A DNA stretch of 17,587 nt from NCBI GenBank assembly GCA_903828055.1, contig CAIKKP010000057.1, positions 1 to 17,587 on the forward strand. The letters run 5' to 3'. How positions within the stretch are numbered: the first letter of the stretch is position 1; every line of letters begins with the position of its first letter. The notes under the pieces are model-generated. The model did no database searches and was not told where the DNA came from. It worked only from the letters and a program-made list of their open reading frames with translations. Below, in pieces: positions 1,388 through 13,617 of the stretch. Both the position numbers and the translations under genes were made by a program. Source of the DNA: an uncultured bacterium. Lineage in GTDB: Bacteria; Patescibacteriota; Andersenbacteria; UBA10190; CAIZMI01.

Positions 1388-2815
1388 ATGTTAAAGCGCA
1401 CTAAAATCGTTTGCACAATCGGGCCCGCTTGTCAGTCGGAAGATAAATTATCGGCTATGATTAAGGCCGGGATGAACGTAGCGCGTCTTAATATGTCGCA
1501 CGGAACGTATGAGAATCATGCGCTCTTGATTCAGAATATTCGTAAAGCCTCGGAAAAGAATGGGGCGATTGTTGCATTACTGTTGGATTTGCAGGGTCCG
1601 AAAATTCGCGTCGGCAAATTGCCTGATGGTGGCGTAGAAATTAAGAAAGACGCGAAAATAATTCTCACCACCGGTACAGAAAAATATTCTGAAGGTGTAA
1701 TTCCGGTGCAGTTCAAGAATTTGCATAAAGATGTCAAAGAAGGTGATCGCATTTTATTGGATGATGGAAATTTGGAAGTGGCCGTTGAAAAGGTTGACGG
1801 CAGGGATATTTACTGTCGCATGATTATTGGTGGAAAGCTTATTTCGCATAAGGGAATTACTGTTCCAACTGCATCGTTGAGTACTTCCGCCTTGTCCAAA
1901 AAAGATAAGGAAGATTTGGTGTTTGGATTGAAACAGGGTGTTGATTTTGTCGCAATTTCCTTTGTTCGTCGTCCTTCCGATATTCGCGAATTGCGCGGTT
2001 TAATCAAAAAAGGATTACCCGATGGAATGGCAACACCGCTGATTATTTCCAAGATTGAAAAACATGAGGCATTGGTAAATTTGGATGAAATTATCGCGGA
2101 AACCGATGGTATTATGGTTGCTCGGGGCGACCTGGCACTGGAAACCAAGGCTTCCGAAGTTCCAATTTGGCAAAAGAGAATGATTCAAAAATGTTTGGAG
2201 GTTGCCAAACCGGTGATTACCGCGACGCAAATGTTAGATTCAATGACCAATGCGCCACGTCCCACACGTGCGGAAATTTCTGACGTGGCTAACGCGGTAA
2301 TAGATCACACGGACGCGACGATGCTTTCTCAGGAATCGGCGATGGGAAAATATCCGATAGAAACAGTAACAACAATGGCTGAGATCGCGCATTCTACCGA
2401 GGCTTCACCATTGGATGACATGGTTACTCTTCCTCCGCTTGATGGTACAGCTCCACCGGTATTGGCAATGAGCGCCGCCGCTTGTAGAGTGGCAAAAGAA
2501 GTCGGTGCCAAGGCCATATTTGTCATGAGTCGTACAGGGTTCACTGCTCGTTGTGTTTCTCGTCACCGTCCGCTTTTGCCTATCATTGTCGCAACCTCTG
2601 AGGCTTCTACGCGCAATCAGTTGGCGTTGAGTTGGGGGGTCGATCCATATTCTATCGAAAAATTCAGCGAGGCCAGGGAAGCCTGGGCGATTTTAGCTCC
2701 GGAATTGAAGAAAAAATATAAATTCAAAAAGGGTGATAAAATTATTGCTGTTTCCGGTTTAACGTCCAACCGCCATGGTGACTGGGACGAGTCGGTGCGT
2801 GTGTTTGAGGTGTAG
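1388..2815 (+). CDS. pyk: Pyruvate kinase
   Basis: 475 aa. N-terminal RTKIVCTIGPA, NVARLNMSHG, active-site MVARGDLA and the C-terminal regulatory-domain architecture are all present. TATAAT lies at 1368-1373. Confidence 0.95.
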   Translation: MLKRTKIVCTIGPACQSEDKLSAMIKAGMNVARLNMSHGTYENHALLIQNIRKASEKNGAIVALLLDLQGPKIRVGKLPDGGVEIKKDAKIILTTGTEKYSEGVIPVQFKNLHKDVKEGDRILLDDGNLEVAVEKVDGRDIYCRMIIGGKLISHKGITVPTASLSTSALSKKDKEDLVFGLKQGVDFVAISFVRRPSDIRELRGLIKKGLPDGMATPLIISKIEKHEALVNLDEIIAETDGIMVARGDLALETKASEVPIWQKRMIQKCLEVAKPVITATQMLDSMTNAPRPTRAEISDVANAVIDHTDATMLSQESAMGKYPIETVTTMAEIAHSTEASPLDDMVTLPPLDGTAPPVLAMSAAACRVAKEVGAKAIFVMSRTGFTARCVSRHRPLLPIIVATSEASTRNQLALSWGVDPYSIEKFSEAREAWAILAPELKKKYKFKKGDKIIAVSGLTSNRHGDWDESVRVFEV

Positions 2816-2886
2816 AAAAATAAATTATTTTATAAAATTTTCAGCAGGCCACCTAATCGTACTTTGTATTATTCATGGTGATTTTT

Positions 2887-2895
2887 TGCTATAAT
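2887..2895 (+). promoter_or_regulatory. Extended -10 box TGcTATAAT
   Basis: Same TGCTATAATA motif as at 892-901. It lies 26 nt upstream of the ATG at 2921, and the -35 is weak. Confidence 0.4.
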
Positions 2896-2920
2896 ATACT
2901 GGTCAATAATTAATATTTAT

Positions 2921-3856
2921 ATGCAAACAAAAACAAAGATCATATCGGTTATTGCGGTGGTTGTTGCGGTGGCGATAGTTTTGGCGTTCGCTATTAATCG
3001 GCCCATGGACAAAGAAATATATTCCTCATCAGATTATGATGTTACTGAGGAAAACATGATTGGTGGTCGGGCATTGCCACAATCATTAGTCGGAGTTGCT
3101 TCAGTGGAGAAAATTCAATCTTTTGCTGACAATTCGGGCGACAAGGCCTCATCTCAACAAAAACTGCAGTCCACTGAAAGATTAATTGTTCGTACCGGGC
3201 GACTGTCGGTTGTTTCTAATGATGTGCGAAAATCGGTCGGTGATATGTCGTCTTACGTTGTTGGTATCGGCGGTTTTGTGGTCAGTTCAAATGTGCAAGG
3301 AACGAATGATAATCCTTCTGCCACTTTGGAAGTTAGGGTTCCTGTCGACAAGTTTCAGGAATCGGTTGATAAGGCAAAAACTGCCGGCTTGCGCGTTACC
3401 AGCGAATCATTGACCGGCGAAGATGTGACGGAAGATTTTGTGGACACACAAGCGAGAATAAAAAATCTGCAGGCCAGTGAAATGCAGTTTTCTGAAATCA
3501 TGAAAAAAGCACAGAAAATCTCGGATGTATTGGAAGTACAACAACAACTTGAGCGAGTAAGAGGAGATATCGATGTCGCTCAAGGTCATGCGCAGTACTT
3601 AGAAAAATCTGCCAAGATGTCATCAATCACGATCTATTTTGCGACCGATGAAGCACAACTGCCGGTGGTGGATCCGGTAAATAATTGGAACCCGCTTACC
3701 ATTATCAAGAACGCATTCCGCTCTTTGGTTGGGTTGGCGCAGGGGTTGGGAACACTGGTAATCTGGTTGGTAATCTATCTCCCGCTTTGGGTATTAATCG
3801 CGGTAGTGGTTTACATCATAAAAAAAATAGTACGGCGTAATCAACAGCTAAAATAG
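2921..3856 (+). CDS. DUF4349 domain protein, a membrane-anchored envelope protein
   Basis: 311 aa with an N-terminal TM and two C-terminal TM helices. The central region carries LEVRVPVDKFQESVDKAKTAGLRVTSESLTGEDVTEDFVDTQARIKNLQASE...VLEVQQQLERVRGDID, which matches the conserved DUF4349 core including DVTEEYVD and RNL. Confidence 0.75.
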   Translation: MQTKTKIISVIAVVVAVAIVLAFAINRPMDKEIYSSSDYDVTEENMIGGRALPQSLVGVASVEKIQSFADNSGDKASSQQKLQSTERLIVRTGRLSVVSNDVRKSVGDMSSYVVGIGGFVVSSNVQGTNDNPSATLEVRVPVDKFQESVDKAKTAGLRVTSESLTGEDVTEDFVDTQARIKNLQASEMQFSEIMKKAQKISDVLEVQQQLERVRGDIDVAQGHAQYLEKSAKMSSITIYFATDEAQLPVVDPVNNWNPLTIIKNAFRSLVGLAQGLGTLVIWLVIYLPLWVLIAVVVYIIKKIVRRNQQLK

Positions 3857-3865
3857 CTATTGCCG

Positions 3866-3901
3866 AAAAAATGCCTCACCCGAAGAGTGAGGCATTTTTT
3901 A
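3866..3901. terminator. Bidirectional rho-independent terminator
   Basis: AAAAA, then stem atgcctcac (3871-3879), a 7-nt loop, stem gtgaggcat (3887-3895), then TTTTTT. It sits between the DUF4349 gene and the stop of the minus-strand recombinase ORF. Confidence 0.8.
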
Positions 3902-3913
3902 ATGGCAGGTTAG

Positions 3914-5554
3914 TTATTGCGGATCTGGTTCACAAGCGGTATGCTTTTGACGCGATAAATAAGCCAAGGAGAGGTGGCCGAGTGGTCGAAGGCGCGGCTC
4001 TCGAAAAGCCGTAGGGGCGCAAGCTTCTCGTGGGTTCGAATCCCACCCTCTCCGCCAGTTTGTACTTTTCGTAAAATCGTAGTCGGTTGCCTTCGCGCGT
4101 TGCGCTTCGGCGTGATATTTCGACGCGATTCGCCACGCGGGTTGGGGGGAAAACGACAACGACCGCTCGGCGATGCGGAAGTTCGAACCAATCTTTTTGA
4201 GAAAATCCCGTCCCGCGACGGGATTTTCTTGTTGAGCGATATTTTCGGCTTGGTTAGCCTCTTTTATGAAGTTTATCATCAGTTCGAACCGATTTTTGCT
4301 CTTTGTTCCAAAAGCGGAGATTTTCTCTTCTAAATCTTTTTTAGCAAGCATAAGTTTTTGTTTTTTCGCAACATATTCCATTTGTGATAAATTTCCGTCC
4401 AGTTGTAAATCAAGCAAACGATCAAGTTTTGTTTCTAGATCCACGAGTTCATCTCTCGTCTTTTGGACATGAAAGCTTTCCGCTTGGACGCCCTCCATTT
4501 TCTCTTTTTCAAATTCCGCAATACTCGCTTTTGCCCAACCGTCTGACAAAGAAACTTTTTTGATCACCTCCTTTATTTGAGAAGTGATGGCGTCCTCTCT
4601 CGCATACCTTTGTGTGCAAGGATTTTTCCGTTTCGTACATCGCAAATAGTTATGTCCTTTTTGCGTTTCAGTGGTAATGAAGCAACCGCACTCCCCGCAA
4701 CGGAAAAATCCTCTGTACACATAAGGTTTGAGTTTTGGCGTTTTCGGTTTTGATTTATTCATCATCACTTCTTGAACGGAATCAAAAAGCTTCTTTGTGA
4801 TAATCGGTTCATGCTTTCCGTCATACAGTTCATCGTTATATTCAATCATTCCGTAATAGATTTTGTTCTTAAGCATATATTGATAATTTGAGACGGAAAG
4901 CATTTTACCTTTCTTGCCAACCAAGCCTAGGGAATTGATCATCTTTCGCACTTGAGCAAGAGGATATTCACCAGTGGCGTACATTTCAAACGCCCGCTTG
5001 ATATACTTTGCCTTTTCTTTGTCCACGGCGATACAGCGAGCATTTTTATCGTTCACATAGCCCAATGGCGCCCAAGCGGGCCAGATGCCATTGCGTAACT
5101 TCTGGCGAATACCTCTCTTGATATTTTCCGACAGATTATCCACATAGTACTTTGATTGCCCAAAAGCGATTGATAACATAAATTTTCCCTGTGGTGTCGG
5201 ATCAAACCAAAAAGTAGGAAATTTTAGCGTGGTTATTTTCCCAGTATCTACCAGATAGATTATCCGTCCGCCGTCTATGGAATTGCGAGCTAAGCGGTCA
5301 GGGTGCCACGCTAAAATTCCTTCTGCTTCATTTTTCTCTATGCAAGAGATCATTTCGTTGAAAATATCTCTGCCCGGCTCTTTGGCGGTTTTACTTTCCA
5401 CAAACTCACGGACGATATTCAATCCTTCTTTTTTCGCAAATTCCCGCAATTCAAACATTTGCGCTTCAATACTCAAAACCTGCCTTTCAGGTTCGTCCGT
5501 GGATTTGCGGGCATAGAGAAAAATCTTTTTGGTTTGTAAATTTATGTTGTCCAT
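3914..5554 (-). CDS. Large serine recombinase with resolvase/invertase catalytic domain, recombinase domain and zinc ribbon
   Basis: The N-terminus YARKST...S has the catalytic Ser context of serine recombinases, followed by an RLARN motif. A CxxC...C...C zinc ribbon lies around residues 286-313 (FRCGECGCFITTETQKGHNYLRCTKRKNPC), and a coiled-coil region follows. Residues 1-456 are unique sequence. Residues 457-546 are encoded by repeat X and the antisense strand of the tRNA, so this is a probable read-through tail. Confidence 0.85.
   Translation of the reverse strand: MDNINLQTKKIFLYARKSTDEPERQVLSIEAQMFELREFAKKEGLNIVREFVESKTAKEPGRDIFNEMISCIEKNEAEGILAWHPDRLARNSIDGGRIIYLVDTGKITTLKFPTFWFDPTPQGKFMLSIAFGQSKYYVDNLSENIKRGIRQKLRNGIWPAWAPLGYVNDKNARCIAVDKEKAKYIKRAFEMYATGEYPLAQVRKMINSLGLVGKKGKMLSVSNYQYMLKNKIYYGMIEYNDELYDGKHEPIITKKLFDSVQEVMMNKSKPKTPKLKPYVYRGFFRCGECGCFITTETQKGHNYLRCTKRKNPCTQRYAREDAITSQIKEVIKKVSLSDGWAKASIAEFEKEKMEGVQAESFHVQKTRDELVDLETKLDRLLDLQLDGNLSQMEYVAKKQKLMLAKKDLEEKISAFGTKSKNRFELMINFIKEANQAENIAQQENPVAGRDFLKKIGSNFRIAERSLSFSPQPAWRIASKYHAEAQRAKATDYDFTKSTNWRRGWDSNPREACAPTAFREPRLRPLGHLSLAYLSRQKHTACEPDPQ
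3968..4057 (+). tRNA. tRNA-Ser with anticodon CGA; class II with a long variable arm and encoded CCA
   Basis: Acceptor GGAGAGG pairs with CCTCTCC. The D arm is GCCGAGTGGTCGAAGGCG. The anticodon stem cggct/agccg carries loop CTCGAAA, giving anticodon CGA. A 19-nt variable arm is followed by T arm GTGGG-TTCGAAT-CCCAC, discriminator G and CCA. It closely resembles canonical bacterial tRNA-Ser. Confidence 0.9.
4052..4185 (+). repeat. Inverted repeat X, copy 1 (134 bp, about 58 % GC)
   Basis: Exact reverse complement of 5618-5751, checked base by base (134 of 134). It begins with CCGCCA, the last 6 nt of the tRNA-Ser. Confidence 0.95.
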
Positions 5555-5585
5555 TCTTTATTTTTGGTTAGCTAAAAGATTGGTT

Positions 5586-5602
5586 GTATCGCCGTGCGAT
5601 AC
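5586..5602. promoter_or_regulatory. 7-bp perfect palindrome in the recombinase upstream leader
   Basis: gtatcgc-cgt-gcgatac lies between the recombinase start codon (5554) and repeat X' (5618). It is a candidate operator. Confidence 0.3.
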
Positions 5603-5617
5603 CCACGCATTGCGCGG

Positions 5618-5751
5618 CGAACTTCCGCATCGCCGAGCGGTCGTTGTCGTTTTCCCCCCAACCCGCGTGGCGAATCGCGTCGAAATATCACGCCGAAGCG
5701 CAACGCGCGAAGGCAACCGACTACGATTTTACGAAAAGTACAAACTGGCGG
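5618..5751 (-). repeat. Inverted repeat X, copy 2
   Basis: Reverse complement of 4052-4185 at 100 % identity. Confidence 0.95.
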
Positions 5752-5900
5752 GCGTTTTTGGACGAAGTTCGAACGTCGTTCGACGCAAACGCGTGACGCC
5801 CCCCCAGCAACGAAACGCGACGACGCCGATTCGTAACGCGAAAAAGGCATGGGAATAAATGAGTACTGTGTATTCTATAACGCAATCTTTATTTTTGCGA
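5748..5900 (+). repeat. Inverted repeat Y, copy 1 (153 bp)
   Basis: Reverse-complement match to 7675-7830 at about 94 % identity. The differences are C7 versus C9 in a homopolymer, a 12-nt divergent patch and one further substitution. It overlaps X' by 4 nt (GCGG). Confidence 0.9.
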
Positions 5901-5916
5901 CACGCCCTCTAAAAAT

Positions 5917-7638
5917 TCAAATAAAATTATTTAATTTTTTAGAAACAAAAAATGGTCCTATTGCTAAATACTTTATGTTTTTTGAATCAATAAAAGCTTC
6001 AATTGCTTGCCCTGGGTCATTAACGATCGGCAAGCCTTTAATATTGAACGATGTATTAATAATCAGAGGAATATTAGTTATATTTTCATATTCTTTTATG
6101 AGATCATAGTAAATACCATTATCATCGTTGTTTACTGTCTGAACTCGTACACTCCCATCAACATGTTGTGCTGCAGGTACTTTGTTACTGTATTCAGACT
6201 GTATTGCATCAACCAACAACATGTATGGCGATTTGGTTCCGCGTACCAGCCAATCTTTTGTTTTTTCTTCAAGAATAGAAATTGCAAAAGGACGAAATGA
6301 TTCCCTGTGTTTAGTTATGTTTAATTTTTCAATCATACTTTTATCAACGGCCGATGCAAGAATACTGCGCGCACCAAGAGCTCGGGGACCAAATTCTAAT
6401 CGTCCCTGAAACCACATAACGATTTCGCCCTCACTCAAAAGTCTGGCAACTTTTGTGTGAATTAAATTTTCCTTTGAATATGAAAATAAGTTTCCATGTT
6501 TCTTTAATTCATTTTCAATTTCCTTATTTGAGTACTCGGGGCCTAAATATGCATGACTAAACCGAACAGGTTTCTTTTCCTTGTTGAATTCTTGATGCAG
6601 TAAGTATTCCGCACCAATTGCTACACCTGCGTCATGCGATGCGGGCTGGATAAAAACCTCCTTGAATGGGGTTTTTTCTAAAATAAATCCATTTGTTACG
6701 GAATTCAAACAGACGCCACCAGCCATCACGAGTTTGCTTTTTTTTGTCTTATTATAAATATCATTTAGTTTTTCCAAAACTATCTCTTGTGTGTACTCTT
6801 GCCAAGTTGCCGCGACATCGAAATGGGCTTGCTTATATTGGCCTGATATGGCTGAAGGTTCGCCAATTAATTTTTCAAATTTCTCTGTTGGTTCTCCTTT
6901 GCAATCAGCTATTTTAAAATAAGAGGTATCTACATTTAGCCAGTCATTATCTTTTTCTGGAAAGAATTTCACAATATTTTTAAATTCACTCAAATATTTT
7001 GGCTTTCCAAGTGCAGCGAATGCCATCGTCGTGCCAGCCTTTTGCCAACCAGGCTCGAAACCGCAATATTCGCCTACTGCTCCCCAAACACATCCAATAG
7101 AATTGGGGTGATACAAAAATCCTTTTTGTTGTATTCCTTTTTTGTAATCAATTTGTCCCCACAAACTTGAATCATATTCTCCCCGCGCATCTATAGTTAA
7201 AAATGCGGCATCATCAAACCCCGAAGCATAAAATGCCGATGCGACATGTGCTTGGTGATGAATGTAAAATTTTATTTTTACGTTTGAAGAAAGTTTTCCG
7301 ATTCTCTTTTCAAAAAGATTAGCAATTGTTCTTAGTTGCCATAACTTTTTTAAGCTCTTTTTAAAAACGTAAAATGGCGGATGATATTGGAACAAGTATT
7401 CTTTAATAATTCGATTAAAAAATAGTTCTTTGGTGTCCCAACCTACGGCAACGCCTTTTAAATCTTTACTTGTAATGCCAGCCTTTTTGAAACAATATTT
7501 AATGGCATTTTCTGGAAAACCGGAATAATGTTTTTTTTGAGTAAATCGTTCTTCTTCAACTGCAACAATAATATTTCCCTCATCATCGATGAGGCAAGCA
7601 CTACTATCGTGTGAATAAGCATTTAGGCCAAGATACAT
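5917..7638 (-). CDS. Carbamoyltransferase of the NodU/CmcH family
   Basis: 573 aa. The N-terminus MYLGLNAYSHDSSACLIDDEGNIIVAVEEERFTQKKHYSGFP is the hallmark of NodU/CmcH/TobZ-type carbamoyltransferases, and the length is typical for the family. Confidence 0.9.
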   Translation of the reverse strand: MYLGLNAYSHDSSACLIDDEGNIIVAVEEERFTQKKHYSGFPENAIKYCFKKAGITSKDLKGVAVGWDTKELFFNRIIKEYLFQYHPPFYVFKKSLKKLWQLRTIANLFEKRIGKLSSNVKIKFYIHHQAHVASAFYASGFDDAAFLTIDARGEYDSSLWGQIDYKKGIQQKGFLYHPNSIGCVWGAVGEYCGFEPGWQKAGTTMAFAALGKPKYLSEFKNIVKFFPEKDNDWLNVDTSYFKIADCKGEPTEKFEKLIGEPSAISGQYKQAHFDVAATWQEYTQEIVLEKLNDIYNKTKKSKLVMAGGVCLNSVTNGFILEKTPFKEVFIQPASHDAGVAIGAEYLLHQEFNKEKKPVRFSHAYLGPEYSNKEIENELKKHGNLFSYSKENLIHTKVARLLSEGEIVMWFQGRLEFGPRALGARSILASAVDKSMIEKLNITKHRESFRPFAISILEEKTKDWLVRGTKSPYMLLVDAIQSEYSNKVPAAQHVDGSVRVQTVNNDDNGIYYDLIKEYENITNIPLIINTSFNIKGLPIVNDPGQAIEAFIDSKNIKYLAIGPFFVSKKLNNFI

Positions 7639-7674
7639 GGATATTGCATTAATGATCTGATCTTATAATAGTTC

Positions 7675-7830
7675 TTCGCAAAAATAAAGATTGCGTTATA
7701 GAATACACAGTACTCATTTATTCCCATGCCTTTTTCGCGCTACGAATCGGCGTCGTCGCGTTTCGTTGCTGGGGGGGGGCGTCACGCGTTGTCAGCGAAA
7801 CACGTTCGAACTTCGTCCAAAAACGCCCGC
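7675..7830 (-). repeat. Inverted repeat Y, copy 2 (155 bp)
   Basis: Reverse complement of 5748-5900. It ends with CCGC at the outer junction. Confidence 0.9.
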
Positions 7831-7839
7831 AAAATAATG

Positions 7840-7867
7840 AAACGCCCTTGTGGCGTTTTGTTATTTT
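7840..7867. terminator. Terminator-like hairpin
   Basis: aaacgcc (7840-7846) pairs with ggcgttt (7852-7858) around loop cttgt, followed by tgttatttt. It lies at the outer edge of repeat Y'. Confidence 0.35.
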
Positions 7868-7977
7868 GCCTGAGCAACCAACTGCTTGGTTGCGAGTGGG
7901 ATTCGAACGGTTCGCGTTGTCCAGCAGGACCGCGAACCGGTGGCCAGAAATTTGCAAATCATTGCAAGTTTCGAGGC

Positions 7978-7992
7978 CGAATCCCACCCTCT
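7978..7992 (+). repeat. Partial duplicate of the tRNA-Ser 3' segment, a candidate attR core
   Basis: 15 of 15 identity to 4037-4051, with mismatches on both flanks. An inverted partner, gtgggattcgaa, lies at 7897-7908. Confidence 0.4.
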
Positions 7993-8087
7993 TTGCAGTA
8001 AGAATTCTTTTCCTTATCGTTGACAGTATCGAATTAGCGTGTAAAGTTTATCAACATTGGTAATTTATAAATAATTGCAATATTGAT

Positions 8088-8531
8088 ATGGGTGAATACA
8101 AAAATGCCTCTGACGTAAAAACAAACGCCATTGGAAAAAACAAAAAAGTGCTCTTCATTGAAGAAGTTGAAGACGATAACTCCCTCCGCAGAGTGCTTAG
8201 TGATAAATTGACCCATGAGGGGTTTGGCGTTTATGAAGCAAAAGATGGCGAAGAGGGATTAGCGGTTGCTTTAAGTGAGCACCCCGATTTGATTTTGCTT
8301 GATATTAAAATGCCCAAAATGGACGGTCTAACGATGATGAAAAAATTGCGTCAGACCGATGAATGGGGAAAGCATGTTCCGATTATTATGTTGACGAACC
8401 TTAGCGCGAACGATAATCATATCAACCAAGTGATTACGGAGAATGAGCCGGCCTATTATATCGTGAAATCAGACTACACACTTGACGAGTTGGTAAAGAA
8501 AATAAGAGAACGACTTTCTAAGGTGCTTTGA
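8088..8531 (+). CDS. Single-domain response regulator (CheY-like receiver)
   Basis: 147 aa. Acidic pocket EEVEDD, phospho-acceptor context LILLDIKMPKMDG, conserved T in IIMLTNLS and a K near the C-terminus. There is no output domain, and no histidine kinase in the window. Confidence 0.8.
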   Translation: MGEYKNASDVKTNAIGKNKKVLFIEEVEDDNSLRRVLSDKLTHEGFGVYEAKDGEEGLAVALSEHPDLILLDIKMPKMDGLTMMKKLRQTDEWGKHVPIIMLTNLSANDNHINQVITENEPAYYIVKSDYTLDELVKKIRERLSKVL

Positions 8532-8948
8532 ATATAAGCACTGTCAGGGTTACAAAATCTTTTAGGGTATACGCAATAATGGGTTGGAGTCTCGTCCTTG
8601 CGAGGCTTTTCAAGGCCGAAGCAATCTCCCGTTAAAAATTACTACTTCATAGCACTCATTCTTGAGATTGCCACGCTGTTCGACAACCCTGAGCTTCCCT
8701 CTCGATCCTGAGCTCGAGGTCGAAGAGCAGTCGAAGGGCCTTGTCCTCCGCCAGCCGGCGGAATCACGCATGATCAATGGCTCGCAAAGACGCGAATTGT
8801 TTCAATTTTGTTTCTGATATGGCTTATGTTTATCTATTAATCCAGATGATTTACGTATGATCTTCATGGGTTGTTTCTTTAAATAAGTCGCATATCGTTT
8901 AGAATATTGAAGCTTACCTACGCTTACGGTTTGTGCTATTATTTACTT

Positions 8949-10187
8949 ATGCCTACAGAAAAGAATTCCGGAGCAATAGACGCGGAAGTGATAAAAGAGC
9001 CATCTTTGAAGGAGATTCTTGACGATAAGGAACTTGGGCGTGGTTTTAAGACGTGGTTAGAAGGACAAAAAAGGGAGGATTTAATGGTTCGTATGTTGTC
9101 TGGGAAATTGGAAAGTGATGATCTGAAGACGTTGGCGTCAGAAACGGATAAGTTTTTAGAGCGAACGAGTCAAAGTGGCGAAATAAAGAAACAAATTTCA
9201 GAAACCGATGAAATTAGTACACTGGTTGAGGCATCAAACTCGGATGACTTAAAAGATTTGGTTAAACTTTTTGGTGTGGATGGTATTAAGGAGGCTTTTG
9301 GGGATGTGTTGGATAAAATCGCTTTGATGCCCGGTGATGAGCTTGCGAATGTTTACAAAGTTTTTAATGAGCGACGTGAAGCGGGGAAGTTGGTGGAACA
9401 ACAAAAAGCCGAATTTAACAGTATGTTGGAAAAGTTGAATTTGTCACAAGAAGAGGCAAAAGAAGTCGCAGGTATTCCGATATGGGAAGTAAGACAAAAA
9501 AAGGTGGCTGAGTTGTGGCGTAGTAAGGGGTTAGAAAAAACCGAGGAAAAAAGTATTTGGTTTATAAAATGGAATAAAAAGGTGTGGCCGCCGGAACAAG
9601 AGGAATTTATGAAAATGGATGCTGAGGATTTTTCCAAGGCGCTTAAAATTAATGAGTGGACAATAACTGAAAAACAAATTGAGAAGGCGGAAAAAGCGTT
9701 AAAGGAACGGCAGAAGTCTTTAGTGGAATCACTGAACGCTACCGCCTCTATCGATGGTATTGCAGAACTCAATCGTCATTTGATAGGGGAAAAGGAAAAA
9801 CCGGACAAAACAATGAGTTTCAAAGAAGTGAAACAGGAACTGAAAAAAGAAAAGGACAAGGAAAACATTTCTCGTGAATTTTTTGAGTATGCGGAACGCG
9901 GGTTCGCTGATTATATTGAAGAGGCTGGCTACCCGATGGGTACGAAAGATTTGCAGATGGCTGCCGCAAGTGATTTTTATCGAAAGTTTCAGGACAATCG
10001 CAAATTACAACAGAACAAACGTGGCGGATTATGGTCGTCTATCTATCAAACTGTTCTTGAGCCGTTAGTTCAAGAATTATTGACCGAACTACAGACAGAT
10101 GATCGCTTTAATGTGACAACAAGAGTTGAGAAGAAACGCGGCGTAGCTGACAAAAATTGGTATAATTTATCAAAGAAAACAAAATGA
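8949..10187 (+). CDS. Hypothetical K/E-rich soluble protein, first gene of a four-gene operon
   Basis: The ORF is open from TTG 8907. An ATG at 8949 lies directly downstream of TGcTATTAT (8934-8942), so a leaderless start is plausible. The protein is charged, largely helical, and has no recognisable domain or TM. Its stop overlaps the next start in ATGA. Confidence 0.5.
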   Translation: MPTEKNSGAIDAEVIKEPSLKEILDDKELGRGFKTWLEGQKREDLMVRMLSGKLESDDLKTLASETDKFLERTSQSGEIKKQISETDEISTLVEASNSDDLKDLVKLFGVDGIKEAFGDVLDKIALMPGDELANVYKVFNERREAGKLVEQQKAEFNSMLEKLNLSQEEAKEVAGIPIWEVRQKKVAELWRSKGLEKTEEKSIWFIKWNKKVWPPEQEEFMKMDAEDFSKALKINEWTITEKQIEKAEKALKERQKSLVESLNATASIDGIAELNRHLIGEKEKPDKTMSFKEVKQELKKEKDKENISREFFEYAERGFADYIEEAGYPMGTKDLQMAAASDFYRKFQDNRKLQQNKRGGLWSSIYQTVLEPLVQELLTELQTDDRFNVTTRVEKKRGVADKNWYNLSKKTK

Positions 10188-10474
10188 CCGAACTCGCCAT
10201 TCAACTTGAAAAGCTAATTGAAGTCGGTGATGAAAAAGCCGTGCGCGCTTTTGTTATTGAACACATTAAAGAGTTTCCGGAAGAAACAAGAAATCAAATC
10301 ATCTTTGCTTTTTTTACCGAAGCGATGGAAAACGACACCAAGGCCAAGCAAGCGCTCGCGGGAATAATTGGTCAAGGGTTGGATGAATTGAAACAAATTA
10401 ATAAAGACCTAGCCAATCTTGGCGATAAGAAAGCGATTTTGGACGTACAAAAGAAGATTCAGGGGATAAAGTAG
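10184..10474 (+). CDS. Hypothetical 96-aa protein
   Basis: The ATG overlaps the upstream TGA in ATGA. Coding-like composition, no recognisable domain. Confidence 0.5.
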   Translation: MTELAIQLEKLIEVGDEKAVRAFVIEHIKEFPEETRNQIIFAFFTEAMENDTKAKQALAGIIGQGLDELKQINKDLANLGDKKAILDVQKKIQGIK

Positions 10475-10687
10475 GACGCGCACTACGTCAGACATAACCC
10501 CTCTTGCGCTGGCACCCTCTCGAACATCCACCGGATGTTCTCGGGGCATCCGCCGCGCCACTTTGATAAGGGGAGATAACTTGGTGTCGTATTTCTTCCA
10601 TTTTTCAGGGGAAGGCGGGGATGAGTTTGGTTGTTGCTTTTGATATGTTTGTTTATTCGTTAGAAAAGCGTCATAATTGACGTAGCT

Positions 10688-11152
10688 ATGCCAACTGAAA
10701 CAAGAAAAGAAAACCCCGAAGGCAGTTTAGTTTTTGAAAATTCGGAAAAAGCGAAGCAGTTTGCCGAGCGCGTGAAAGAAAACTTAGAACAAAAGAATGA
10801 GTCTGAACCTGGCATGGAAAGGCGTAACGAACTTACTGAAAAACGCATTAAAGACGCAATTCGTGAAGAATTGGAGAACGAAACAAACGGTGCCGGTTTG
10901 GCTACTGTTGCGGAAGGCAAGGGTGAATGGCAGTATTCCGCCGAGGATCGCGCGGGTGTACAACAATATGTAAACGTGGCTTTCGCTACCTCCGTTCAAA
11001 AAGCGGTGGAAGAAATGATGCGAGAAAAAATTGTCGCGGGCAGTAAAGCCGACGAAGCGTCCACTTATCGTAAACTTGATTTATTTCATGACACGCTCAC
11101 CGATCATCTCTACCAAGATATGACGGCCAGAAAAATGATTCCACCGGGATGA
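10688..11152 (+). CDS. Hypothetical 154-aa acidic protein
   Basis: Preceded by TTGTTT, a 17-nt spacer and CATAAT (about 10648-10676). Its stop overlaps the next ATG in ATGA. No TM and no recognisable domain. Confidence 0.5.
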   Translation: MPTETRKENPEGSLVFENSEKAKQFAERVKENLEQKNESEPGMERRNELTEKRIKDAIREELENETNGAGLATVAEGKGEWQYSAEDRAGVQQYVNVAFATSVQKAVEEMMREKIVAGSKADEASTYRKLDLFHDTLTDHLYQDMTARKMIPPG

Positions 11153-13617
11153 TTCAGTTACTTGTTCTTTTCTTGTTGTTGATTATTGTAGGGATTATCA
11201 CCTATTTGGTTTTGAAGTATTTGCAGGAAGAAAGATTACTCTCTTCTTTACATTTGATTTTGCTGGAAGTGACGGTGCCGAAAGACTTACCGCAACAAGA
11301 AAAAGACCGTGAGGGAACGGTGCAGGAACAAATTATGCGCGGTTCGCAGTTTTTAGCCAGTTTGGCGGGTTTGCGTGAAGAAAATTTCATTAAGAATCTG
11401 ATTTTTGGTAAACCGACATGGGGTTTCGAAATTGTCGCGCATCCGAATGGTGAGATTATTTTCTTTGTTTCGGTACCACGTCGTTATGAAGAATTTATGG
11501 AAAAACAAATTCTTGCTTTTTATCCGCGTGCCGATGTGAAGCGCGTGGCGGATTATACGATTTTTGAAGAAGGTGACACGGTTGAGGGGGGAGTTGTAAA
11601 ACAACATCATAAAAAATATTTACCGTTGAAGACTTTTGAGGATTTGCCGTCCGACCCGATGCAGGGGATTACACAGGCGTTATCTAAAATGGAAAAAGGC
11701 GACGGTGGCGCGGTGCAATTTATTGTGCGACCGGCATCCGCGCGGATTCGTGTGAAGGGACGGCGTGTTACGCGTCAGGTGGCGTTGGGAAAAGAAAAAT
11801 CGGTGCGACACGGGACTTCTTCTTTTGGCGAGGCGGCTCGCGGTTTGGGGCGCACAGCTAACAATTCCTTATTGAAAAATAAAGAGCAAAATACGCGACA
11901 AGACGATCGGGAAGATAAGTGGCAAGCACAAATGTCGCCTGCGGAACAAGAACGACTAGAACGCGTAGATAAAAAAACCGGTGAATATCAGTTTGAAGTG
12001 ACAATGCGCTTAATCGTTTCCTGCAAAACAAAAGAAACAGCCGAATCACATTTTATGGTACTCAAAGAATCACTGACGCAATTTGGCGACCCTTCTTTAA
12101 ACGAGTTGAGTACGCATCGTCAAACGAAACGTAGTTTTTTCCGTGATTATATATTCCGCACGTTTAAAAAATCGCAATGCATGGTGTTGTCGTTGACGGA
12201 GCTTTTGTCACTTTTCCATTTCCCGTTATCTACCACTGAAACACCCAATATTCGTTGGCGCACGTCAAGAAGTGTCGCGGCACCGGCCAATTTGCCCCAA
12301 AACGGTATTTTATTAGGTTACAACGATTACCGAGGGATTAAGACTCCTATTCGGCTTCAAAGAGAGGACAGGCGTCGTCATATGTATATGATCGGTCAAA
12401 CTGGAACCGGTAAAACAACGCTCTTCAAAAATATGATTATGCAGGATATTCGCAACGGAGAAGGAGTCGGGGTGGTTGATCCGCACGGACAATTGATTGA
12501 AGATATTCTTTTGCAGATTCCTAGAGAGCGGGCCGAAGATGTGATTATTTTTGATCCGCGCGATACCGATCGGCCGTTGGGGTTGAATATGTTGGAGGCG
12601 CGCAATCCGGCGCAACGCGATCTTGTTGTTTCCGAACTAATTATGATTATCGAAAAACTGGCCACACGGATGAATCCGGAATCGATCGGTCCGATGTTTG
12701 AACATTATTTGAGGAACGCGCTTTTGACACTGGTGGAAGACCCAGACTCAACAATGATCGATATCTCTCGTCTTTTTACCGACAAGGCCTTTCGTGATTG
12801 GCTGGTGGCAAAAGTGAAAAACCCGATAGTGCGGGAGTTTTGGGAGAAAGAGTATGCTCAATCTCTGAAGGGGCAACAGTCGGCCGATATGTTGTCGTAT
12901 GTTATCAGTAAGCTTGGGCGTTTTATTGGTAATGAGGTAATTCGCAATATCATCGGTCAGCCAAAAAGTTCGTTTGATCTGCGTGAAATAATGGATAATA
13001 AAAAAATCTTACTCGTTAATTTGTCGAAGGGTTCGTTGGGTGATATTAATGCCGATTTGCTTGGGTTTATCTTAGTCAGTAAGTTGCAAATTACGGCGCT
13101 TTCCAGAACGGATATTCCGGAAAATCAACGTAAGGATTTTTATCTTTATCTCGATGAGTTTCAAAATTTCACCACCGATACTGTCGGGACAATTTTAAGC
13201 GAGGCGCGTAAATATCGCTTGGACTTGAATTTGACGCATCAGTTTATCGCGCAACTTTCGGATGAAATCAGAGAAGCTGTTTTTGGTAACGTTGGTACGG
13301 TAATTTCTTATCGTGTCGGTGTGGAAGATTCGGAGCTGATGGCAAAACAACTCGCCCCTGTTTTTGACGAGTATGATTTGATTAATGTTCCAAATTATAA
13401 TTGTTTCACGCGCTTACTTGCCAAAAATCAACCGCAACGTCCATTTTCCATGAAAGCGTCACCGCCACCACCGGGGGGCGACGAAGAACTTCGTCAGAAT
13501 TTGTATGAATTGTCACGTCTTAAATATGGTCGACCAAAACAGGAAGTGGAAGAGAGAATATTGGAACGGCTGAAAGTAGCGACTGCTCCCAGCCTGTCCG
13601 GTATGGGTTCGCGCTAA
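11149..13617 (+). CDS. TrwB/TraD/VirD4-like type IV coupling protein family P-loop ATPase, membrane-anchored
   Basis: 822 aa with an N-terminal TM (LVLFLLLIIVGIITYLVL). Walker A MIGQTGTGKTTL is followed by VVDPHGQLIEDIL...IIFDPRDTDRPLGLNMLE, matching the TrwB pattern GATGTGKS...IVDPNGD...ILNP.D.R. Walker B is YLYLDEFQNF. The C-terminal LTHQFIAQL...GNVGTVISYRVG matches the Q..QL...GN motif of coupling proteins. Confidence 0.6.
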   Translation: MIQLLVLFLLLIIVGIITYLVLKYLQEERLLSSLHLILLEVTVPKDLPQQEKDREGTVQEQIMRGSQFLASLAGLREENFIKNLIFGKPTWGFEIVAHPNGEIIFFVSVPRRYEEFMEKQILAFYPRADVKRVADYTIFEEGDTVEGGVVKQHHKKYLPLKTFEDLPSDPMQGITQALSKMEKGDGGAVQFIVRPASARIRVKGRRVTRQVALGKEKSVRHGTSSFGEAARGLGRTANNSLLKNKEQNTRQDDREDKWQAQMSPAEQERLERVDKKTGEYQFEVTMRLIVSCKTKETAESHFMVLKESLTQFGDPSLNELSTHRQTKRSFFRDYIFRTFKKSQCMVLSLTELLSLFHFPLSTTETPNIRWRTSRSVAAPANLPQNGILLGYNDYRGIKTPIRLQREDRRRHMYMIGQTGTGKTTLFKNMIMQDIRNGEGVGVVDPHGQLIEDILLQIPRERAEDVIIFDPRDTDRPLGLNMLEARNPAQRDLVVSELIMIIEKLATRMNPESIGPMFEHYLRNALLTLVEDPDSTMIDISRLFTDKAFRDWLVAKVKNPIVREFWEKEYAQSLKGQQSADMLSYVISKLGRFIGNEVIRNIIGQPKSSFDLREIMDNKKILLVNLSKGSLGDINADLLGFILVSKLQITALSRTDIPENQRKDFYLYLDEFQNFTTDTVGTILSEARKYRLDLNLTHQFIAQLSDEIREAVFGNVGTVISYRVGVEDSELMAKQLAPVFDEYDLINVPNYNCFTRLLAKNQPQRPFSMKASPPPPGGDEELRQNLYELSRLKYGRPKQEVEERILERLKVATAPSLSGMGSR

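Follow-up and report, generated by a model that had tools for sequence, protein, structure and literature searches.

A folded intergenic segment beyond a serine recombinase element inserted at tRNA-Ser(CGA), and its probable origin

The stretch of DNA analysed here, referred to as the window, comprises the 17,587 nt of contig CAIKKP010000057.1 (assembly GCA_903828055.1, from an uncultured bacterium). Between positions 7831 and 7995 it holds a non-coding segment in which hairpins and tRNA-like fragments are crowded together, and this raises the question of whether the segment is a gene for an RNA, a site for recombination, or the debris of earlier insertions. The initial annotation, made from the sequence alone, regarded it as the right edge of an island of long repeats and offered three explanations: a decayed tRNA, a small structured RNA, or an att region with several inverted repeats to which a recombinase would bind. 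The reading that seems to us probable, if only by a little, is that the segment is a composite of three things lying just past the right end of an LSR (large serine recombinase) element that has entered tRNA-Ser(CGA). The best-supported account of them involves known kinds of sequences, namely the terminator of a tRNA, one arm of an attR, and relic DNA with a displaced tRNA fragment, and it is likely that the terminator is the only part of the segment that functions today.

Folding of the segment and searches for known RNAs

All the elements listed in the initial annotation are present in the sequence, some of them 1 nt away from where they had been placed (Table 1). P1 had been given as 7875-7894, and the palindrome TTGCAA-ATCA-TTGCAA, found at 7952-7967 and not at 7953-7968, is the core of the longer stem of P3. 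The nested hairpin P2 had been located correctly, with the strands of its stem at 7908-7916 and 7931-7939 and the inner GTCC-AGCA-GGAC at 7919-7930; one assembly contig (L006) breaks in its loop, at 7922. The terminator-like hairpin is formed by AAACGCC and GGCGTTT at 7840-7858, followed by TGTTATTTT up to 7867.

Table 1. Features of the tRNA-Ser(CGA) locus and of related elements (window coordinates unless a contig is named).
Feature	Position	Strand	Remarks
Live tRNA-Ser(CGA)	3968-4057	+	ARAGORN; Rfam tRNA 59.5 bits; source of both fragments
Inverted repeat A / A'	4052-4185 / 5618-5751		134 nt, 100% identical
Inverted repeat B / B'	5748-5900 / 7676-7830		About 155 nt, 90-99% identical
CCGC core, right crossover of the LSR element	7827-7830	+	Common to attL (4052-4055) and attR
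Intrinsic-terminator hairpin	7831-7871	+	Core stem 7840-7846 / 7852-7858; extended 14-bp stem 7833-7866; T-rich tail
Hairpin P1	7874-7893		Perfect 8-bp stem, GCAACCAA-CTGC-TTGGTTGC; from sequence; folds on both strands
Inverted T-loop and 3' T-stem copy of tRNA-Ser	7894-7908	-	- strand reads GTTCGAATCCCAC(TC)
Nested hairpin P2	7908-7939		9-bp stem CGGTTCGCG/CGCGAACCG; one-sided TT bulge; inner 4-bp GTCC/GGAC; loop AGCA
Hairpin P3	7942-7978		11-bp stem 7947-7957 / 7962-7972; GGCC clamp 7942-7945 / 7975-7978; loop ATCA; from folding
Putative displaced tRNA-Ser 3' end	7978-7995	+	CGAATCCCACCCTCT (7978-7992) = 4037-4051, then TTG vs CCG in the live tRNA
LSR elements in relatives	L019:144-2017; L020:4643-6482; L020:6593-11587; L021:4843-11584		

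The description of the segment as densely structured is supported by folding, which exceeds chance on either strand (z about -9). For 7831-7995, the minimum free energy is -84.1 kcal/mol on the + strand and -81.2 kcal/mol on the - strand, versus about -45 +/- 4 for dinucleotide shuffles (z = -9.1 and -9.6, respectively), and none of 200 dinucleotide shuffles is equally stable. When the terminator is left out, 7872-7995 still gives z = -7.8 (+) and -8.6 (-). The GC content of 7872-7977 is 55%, and that of the adjoining intergenic DNA is 27%.

The segment is non-random, and it is neither a tRNA gene nor any known RNA gene. The tRNA-search and covariance-model scans recommended in the initial annotation have yielded neither a tRNA nor an Rfam family: the tRNA-Ser at 3968-4057 is the sole tRNA that ARAGORN detects in the window, in keeping with the earlier failure to fold a complete tRNA on either strand; the Rfam tRNA model RF00005 (gathering threshold 29 bits) has no match in 7650-8100 or 7865-8000, even at E <= 10; and no family of Rfam 15 matches the segment at its gathering score. 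In E-value mode, the segment returns only miRNA, snoRNA, and sRNA noise of 10-22 bits versus thresholds of 38-59, and the signals over P3 are merely sub-threshold miRNA-hairpin noise. A complete tRNA, or one split by an intervening sequence, has been rejected on the basis of the ARAGORN and Rfam results, and also because the insert of ~70 nt between the T-arm halves is too short for a group I intron. In Patescibacteria, tRNA introns sit in the anticodon loop and not in the T-loop (PMC13011429).

In its T-arm sequence and in a multi-helix junction closed by a long stem, the segment is similar to the tRNA-like domain of tmRNA and to the tRNA-like module of bacterial Y RNAs. In contrast to them, it has no coaxial acceptor/T-arm unit, CCA end, Rfam match, associated protein gene, or conservation.

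The end of the recombinase element and the copies of tRNA-Ser(CGA)

The LSR element entered tRNA-Ser(CGA) at the CCA end and occupies positions 4052-7830. Its inverted-repeat arms end at the CCGC of the right crossover, with which the comparison of junctions in three elements agrees, and the intact inverted copy of attP at 5745-5756 reads ...CTGGCGGGCGTT. Since the right crossover is located at 7827-7830, everything to the right of 7830 is DNA that does not belong to the element. The segment is consequently not the right edge of the long-repeat island, and it matters chiefly for annotation, as the true end of the mobile element is 7830 and not 7995. A search for the segment beside other copies of the repeats had also been advised, and the LSR elements of relatives carry nothing similar beyond their right ends: in the two whose far end has been read (L021 and L020b), neither a direct repeat of a tRNA end nor a similar structure appears beyond B', and the DNA lying there in L020 and L021 is unrelated.

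The proposal of an att region is upheld in part. The first ~25 nt of the segment constitute the attB-derived arm beside the CCGC crossover, as in a serine-integrase attR, of which they form the chromosomal arm, and comparison with the intact attP copy sets the boundary within 4 nt. The palindromes, on the other hand, are unlike repeated binding sites for one recombinase, because they show three unrelated half-sites and one of the stems has a one-sided bulge. Another difference from a serine-integrase attR is that 7872-7995 falls outside the ~50-bp site that such an enzyme needs and has no counterpart at other insertions of the family.

The hairpin at 7831-7871 can be read as the terminator of the tRNA itself, which would now also act as the chromosomal (B') arm of attR. 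On the + strand, its 14-bp stem, including two G.U pairs, is followed by TTTTGTTATTTT and folds with -14.4 kcal/mol, versus -10.7 on the - strand, where both G.U pairs turn into A.C mismatches. A GC-containing hairpin directly followed by a run of T is therefore found downstream of a transcription unit, as in intrinsic terminators, and a terminator scan flags 7858-7840. Before the LSR insertion, 7831-7871 would have been located directly 3' of a tRNA ending in ...CTCTCCGC, and the sequence is weakly similar to the terminator 3' of tRNA-Ser(CGA) in the relative L017 (score 21 vs 14.1 +/- 2.2 for shuffles). The terminator has been assigned to the tRNA strand due to this resemblance and to its greater strength on the + strand. 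It shares with the rho-independent terminators usually found downstream of tRNAs the GC-cored hairpin, the T-run, the former contact with the tRNA 3' end, and the greater strength on the tRNA strand; it differs from them in that 3.8 kb of inserted element now part it from the tRNA, and in being nearly symmetrical, so that it could also stop - strand transcripts.

Both tRNA-like fragments of the segment, which had been called tRNA-derived, have turned out to be true copies of the neighbouring tRNA-Ser(CGA). The first, CGAATCCCAC, is found at 7978-7987, exactly where it had been reported, and belongs to a longer same-strand match in which 7978-7992 and 4037-4051 agree at 15 of 15 positions; by chance, the window should contain about 3e-5 matches of this kind. 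The second, gtgggattcgaa (= GTGGGATTCGAA), is located at 7896-7907 (7897-7908 in the initial annotation), and 7896-7908 is the reverse complement of 4034-4046 over 13 of 13 positions. An extension of the tRNA homology 5' of the 15-mer was considered as well and is not significant.

An intact tRNA followed by a displaced 3' fragment is a classical mark of tRNA-targeted integration, and here a same-strand exact repeat of the 3' part of the tRNA lies downstream of the intact gene. Judging from the comparison of sequences, 7978-7995 is probably a tRNA tail displaced by an older event and decaying since then (CC to TT). The suggestion of a decayed tRNA thus holds for this displaced 3' end, and fails for a complete or intron-split tRNA; the tRNA-like pieces would be relics, with no tRNA overlooked. 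The window encodes no cognate integrase with its crossover inside the repeat and no tyrosine integrase, its sole recombinase being the LSR, whose crossover is the CCGC of 4052-4055 / 7827-7830. Because this crossover is at the CCA end and not in the T-loop, the LSR did not create the 15-nt repeat; since, in addition, the two related LSR elements read to their far end are devoid of the repeat, it is attributed to a different, older event. This tRNA-Ser gene would then have been struck at least two times by inserted DNA.

Displaced tRNA fragments as marks of island ends, and scattered partial tRNAs as marks of older integrations, have been documented (PMC4383910; 10.1101/2020.12.28.424599). The locus is similar to Islander-type island ends and to the partial tRNAs of Prochlorococcus tycheposons in the intact tRNA with a same-strand exact 15-nt 3' copy downstream, in the mobile DNA between both copies, and in a fragment that is starting to decay. 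Unlike in those systems, the sole recombinase between the copies is a serine integrase with its crossover at the CCA end instead of the T-loop, and the DNA ascribed to the older event amounts to only about 150 nt, without a gene.

The tail also has a match in a relative, L015, in which tRNA-Ser(CGA) is unoccupied. By blastn, it aligns with the 3' end of that tRNA and its flank over 33 nt (82%, E = 0.027). The match runs ~15 nt past the tRNA end (window ...CCCACCCTCTTTGCAGTAAGA..., L015 ...CCCACCCTCTCCGCAGTCAGA...), where the flank alone is not significant versus shuffles, and it gives a weak hint that the sequence from 7993 onward may be ancestral flank. It is very improbable that the tail belongs to a second downstream tRNA gene, that is, to a tandem class-II tRNA which would have its T-arm and acceptor in common with tRNA-Ser(CGA) and its 5' two-thirds scrambled. 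Tandem tRNA-Ser genes ~110 nt apart do occur in the relative L020, the tRNA-Ser(CGA) of L019 and the tRNA-Ser(TGA) of L021 share the 3' end CGAGGGTTCGAATCCCTCTCTCTCCGCCA, and short collinear matches follow one another at 7940-7992 (GGTGGCC, then GCAAG..TTC, then the 15-mer). However, these extra matches are not significant (local score 37, nearly all of it from the 15-mer, vs a shuffle maximum of 36), no tRNA model matches either strand, and the inverted T-arm copy is left unexplained; a relative such as L015, with a single tRNA-Ser and then what may be the flank found from 7993 onward, would also speak against a second gene.

At the left junction, attL of the window reads ...CTCCGCCA, and the comparison of junctions reveals that the LSR element supplies the last two bases of the live tRNA (CA, 4056-4057), that is, of the encoded CCA (window 4052-4057). 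In relatives without an LSR element, tRNA-Ser(CGA) is without an encoded CCA (L015, CTCCGCAG, 10186-10194; L017, CTCCGCAC, 8980-8990), and the sequence of the window before the insertion would have been CTCCGCAA. Directly upstream of the unoccupied tRNA-Ser(CGA) of L015 there is a LAGLIDADG-like ORF (L015:9035-10102).

The history proposed for the locus starts with an older insertion, provided with a replacement tRNA tail and a terminator, which would have entered the region of tRNA-Ser between the T-loop and the acceptor and displaced the original tail; the latter, from T-loop to discriminator, would be what is now 7978-7995. The remains of the older insert would comprise about 150 nt, in which 7872-7977 (~106 nt) would correspond to GC-rich palindromes including the inverted 13-nt T-arm copy. 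The LSR element would have come second, entering between the rebuilt tRNA, at its CCA end, and the terminator. The inverted T-arm copy would happen to face the displaced tail, enclosing two inner hairpins in a three-way junction, which would exist because the older DNA holds such a copy in that orientation. According to this history, the middle part of the segment would be a functionless relic and neither an active RNA nor a recombination site, and an internal deletion must be assumed, because the older element would be only about 166 nt long.

Readings of the folded middle part

In folding, the T-arm pieces pair together (7896-7904 as the 5' strand with 7979-7987 as the 3' strand) and close a three-way junction with linkers of 0-3 nt and ~45 bp in all, including 1-2 imperfections. 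The stem of P3 has one T-G pair on the + strand, which is a C.A mismatch on the - strand. This architecture weighs against the relic reading, as a scar in passive decay should be less orderly than ~45 near-perfect bp at 55% GC; the displaced tail has already undergone 2 changes over about 20 nt. In addition, the closed three-way junction, with its short linkers and one-sided bulge, resembles a folded single strand (RNA or ssDNA), and the window lacks an integrase of the kind that an insertion with a 15-bp repeat would call for. It is nevertheless unlikely, in our estimation, that the junction of 7872-7995 is a functional folded nucleic acid, in which an inverted T-arm copy would have been captured and would pair with the displaced tRNA-Ser tail. 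A functional junction could take two forms, either a tRNA-derived small RNA with its own - strand promoter and terminator, or a hairpin DNA site for a tRNA-targeting recombinase, and in both cases the innovation would be specific to the lineage of a Peregrinibacteria-like bacterium whose genome is reduced.

Homologues of the middle part have been sought in several collections. Neither the tRNA-Ser neighbourhoods of relatives nor their LSR elements contain a homologue of 7872-7977, and no match to the segment was obtained by pattern scans of viral contigs or by blastn versus phages and plasmids. A covariance model of 7872-7995, searched against 0.49 Mb of loci that included LSR-bearing relatives, retrieved the query itself only. 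A second copy of 7872-7977 is found neither in the ~22 kb available of this genome nor in 0.9 Mb of other collected loci. A single scan of genome contigs and a single scan of metagenome contigs, for which the queries were poorly chosen, returned distant, irrelevant loci only. With respect to a retron msr/msd, the outer inverted repeat is present, no reverse transcriptase is encoded, and the neighbouring genes are those for the carbamoyltransferase and a response regulator.

A rather unlikely reading of the middle part, given this lack of homologues and hence of covariation, is a small structured RNA gene made partly from pieces of tRNA-Ser. Its likeliest version would be a - strand transcript of ~185 nt, starting near 8017, ending at the hairpin 7858-7840, and containing the three-way junction, the 8-bp hairpin, and the terminator. 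The very strong folding excess on both strands, the GC-rich island (55%) amid AT-rich DNA, and the nested stems, short linkers, and asymmetric bulge typical of RNA are all in its favour, as are the promoter-like site (8054-8025) and the terminator-like site (7858-7840) of the - strand. Nevertheless, the promoter matches at 9 of 12 positions in a region of 27% GC where such matches are common (4 found vs 1.3 expected), the terminator is better on the + strand, and no Rfam family emerges even at E <= 10. The asymmetries between G.U pairs and A.C mismatches also cancel each other, as P3 favours the + strand and the outer stem the - strand, which is what DNA palindromes give. Transcription of the junction, if it took place, would make it a case of a new RNA made from tRNA debris.

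We consider quite improbable an active DNA site of an integrating element that uses the T-arm, either as palindromes for a recombinase or accessory proteins (att or res-like) or as a hairpin-forming single-strand or transfer origin. The location between the intact tRNA and the displaced tail is exactly that of the attP arms in an integrated element, and the palindromes are flanked by two inverted T-arm halves. Furthermore, the LSR family appears to recognise GTTCGAA located 18 nt ahead of CCGC on the attB side and 23 nt ahead of it on the attP side, and the putative motif-like sequences GATTCGAAC and GGTTCGCG occur in the segment. Contrary to what such a site would require, the inverted T-arm copy has no CCGC core at the required spacing, and alignment to attL, attP, and the LSR 3' ends of five elements yields nothing beyond the 13-mer. 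No tyrosine integrase, relaxase, or replication gene is encoded nearby, related LSR elements exist without any such segment, and the unrelated half-sites and the one-sided bulge of the palindromes apply here as well.

Two further candidates for parts of this region have been rejected. A decayed LSR 3' end or attL for 7872-7910 was prompted by GCAACC..AACTG..GTGGGATTCGAAC, which is collinear by eye; its alignment to five junctions is limited to the T-arm 13-mer. A decayed left part of attP for P2 (GTTCG..GTCCAG..CCGC) is not significant.

Relatives of the locus were found by means of DUF4349 homologues, and none of them carries the segment; L015 and L017 have tRNA-Ser(CGA) nearby (inverted in L017), and L013 does not. 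Those found through homologues of the response regulator are not syntenic. Empty-site or variant alleles were sought via identical flanking proteins, and every contig found has the same arrangement; the available contigs of the locus represent one clone, with at least 99.96% identity. In L017, DUF4349 and the inverted tRNA-Ser are followed almost directly by AA_kinase, DnaG, and sigma-70 (L017:9175-10849). Compared with L017, the window has an extra block at 8088-13617, which encodes a stand-alone response regulator, an 822-aa TrwB-like coupling-protein ATPase (PHROG 5156), and ORFs of 426, 96, and 154 aa that belong to no family. The response regulator has its nearest homologues in sequences labelled Paceibacterota, and the DUF4349 neighbours are labelled Peregrinibacteria. 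This block may be DNA acquired beside the tRNA.

The recombinase element and its family

The design of the LSR element is more notable than the segment itself, and no paper describing it has been found in a literature search. Between its repeats there are two - strand genes, for the LSR (with Resolvase, Recombinase, and Zn_ribbon_recom domains) and for a carbamoyltransferase. A' and B are contiguous, and A'B encodes ...STNWRAFLDEVRTSFDANA and a stop codon; as they abut, joining 7830 to 4052 via the common CCGC recreates the A'B sequence. The reading frame of the LSR passes through A into the tRNA in antisense, and joining the CCGC cores of attL and attR restores a free-form protein of 515 aa. 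The free C-terminus (NWRCFLDEVRTFF...) is present in about 20 of 120 close homologues, and most other full-length homologues have tails of the type NWRRGxDSNPR..., which corresponds to the antisense translation of a tRNA 3' end. These two types of tails place attP within the 3' end of the LSR gene and the crossover at the CCA end of the tRNA. Upon integration, the last ~16 residues of the LSR are swapped for the tRNA-antisense read-through, a change of tail that may control the activity or direction of the recombinase.

In the window, the integrated LSR protein has 546 aa, with the read-through as its tail (WRRGWDSNPREACAPTAF..., 3914-5554 on the - strand), and the excised or flipped form would have 515 aa, ending in AFLDEVRT(S/C)F..NA before the stop codon (5618-5796 on the + strand). 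B and B' differ at 9 positions, with the frame and the stop codon kept. The hypothetical excised or inverted isoforms (515-aa) of this LSR are absent from the protein collection, as determined by exact look-up, and so there is no sign that this copy is now excising or flipping.

Four more elements have been found in relatives (one in L019, two in L020, and one in L021), with the same layout, a CCGC(C) junction at the end of a tRNA-Ser, and different cargo. Together with the element of the window they define, as a by-product of this analysis, a family of small elements that are found in candidate-phyla bacteria and use a serine integrase to enter tRNA-Ser ends. Their attP is located within the integrase gene, and a perfect inverted copy of it is retained as a spare. 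The order is tRNA, A, LSR, A'B, cargo, B', and flank, with the junctions after the tRNA and before the flank; A and A' have ~134 nt and are 99-100% identical, and B and B', also inverted, have 150-290 nt. A'B is an intact inverted attP copy which includes the last ~45 codons of the recombinase. The cargo consists of a carbamoyltransferase in the window, copper-resistance genes in L021, and a Na/Ca exchanger, an MFS transporter, and GreA in L020.

The T-loop motif GTTCGAA starts 18 nt before CCGC on the attB side (window 4034-4055), and an identical GTTCGAA starts 23 nt before CCGC on the attP side (window 7804-7830), as observed in all three elements compared (window, L020, and L021). The distance of the motif from the core is consequently greater by 5 bp in attP than in attB. 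In serine-integrase structures, an outward shift of 5 bp of the zinc-ribbon-domain motif is the expected difference between attB and attP half-sites.

Some variation has been observed around the recombinase gene. Contig L108 (positions 1-2357, sample ERZ27313539) is the reverse complement of window 4052-5751, with 100% identity up to about window 4173, beyond which it exhibits a different A-region (~65% identical), a free-form tail (NWRCFLDEVRTFFDENPE and a stop codon), and an HTH gene. Either L108 comes from a second element whose 3' cassette has been swapped, or it is an assembly chimera joined across the common recombinase body. In some contigs of the same population, the recombinase is called as two pieces of 421 aa and 38 aa (L010:1281-2794; the 421-aa piece is P0016), which implies that the gene is disrupted near the N-terminus in some members of the population. 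The alignment of L010 with the window, which covers window 2634-5334 only, contains one difference, at 3319, and this position is not within the recombinase gene.
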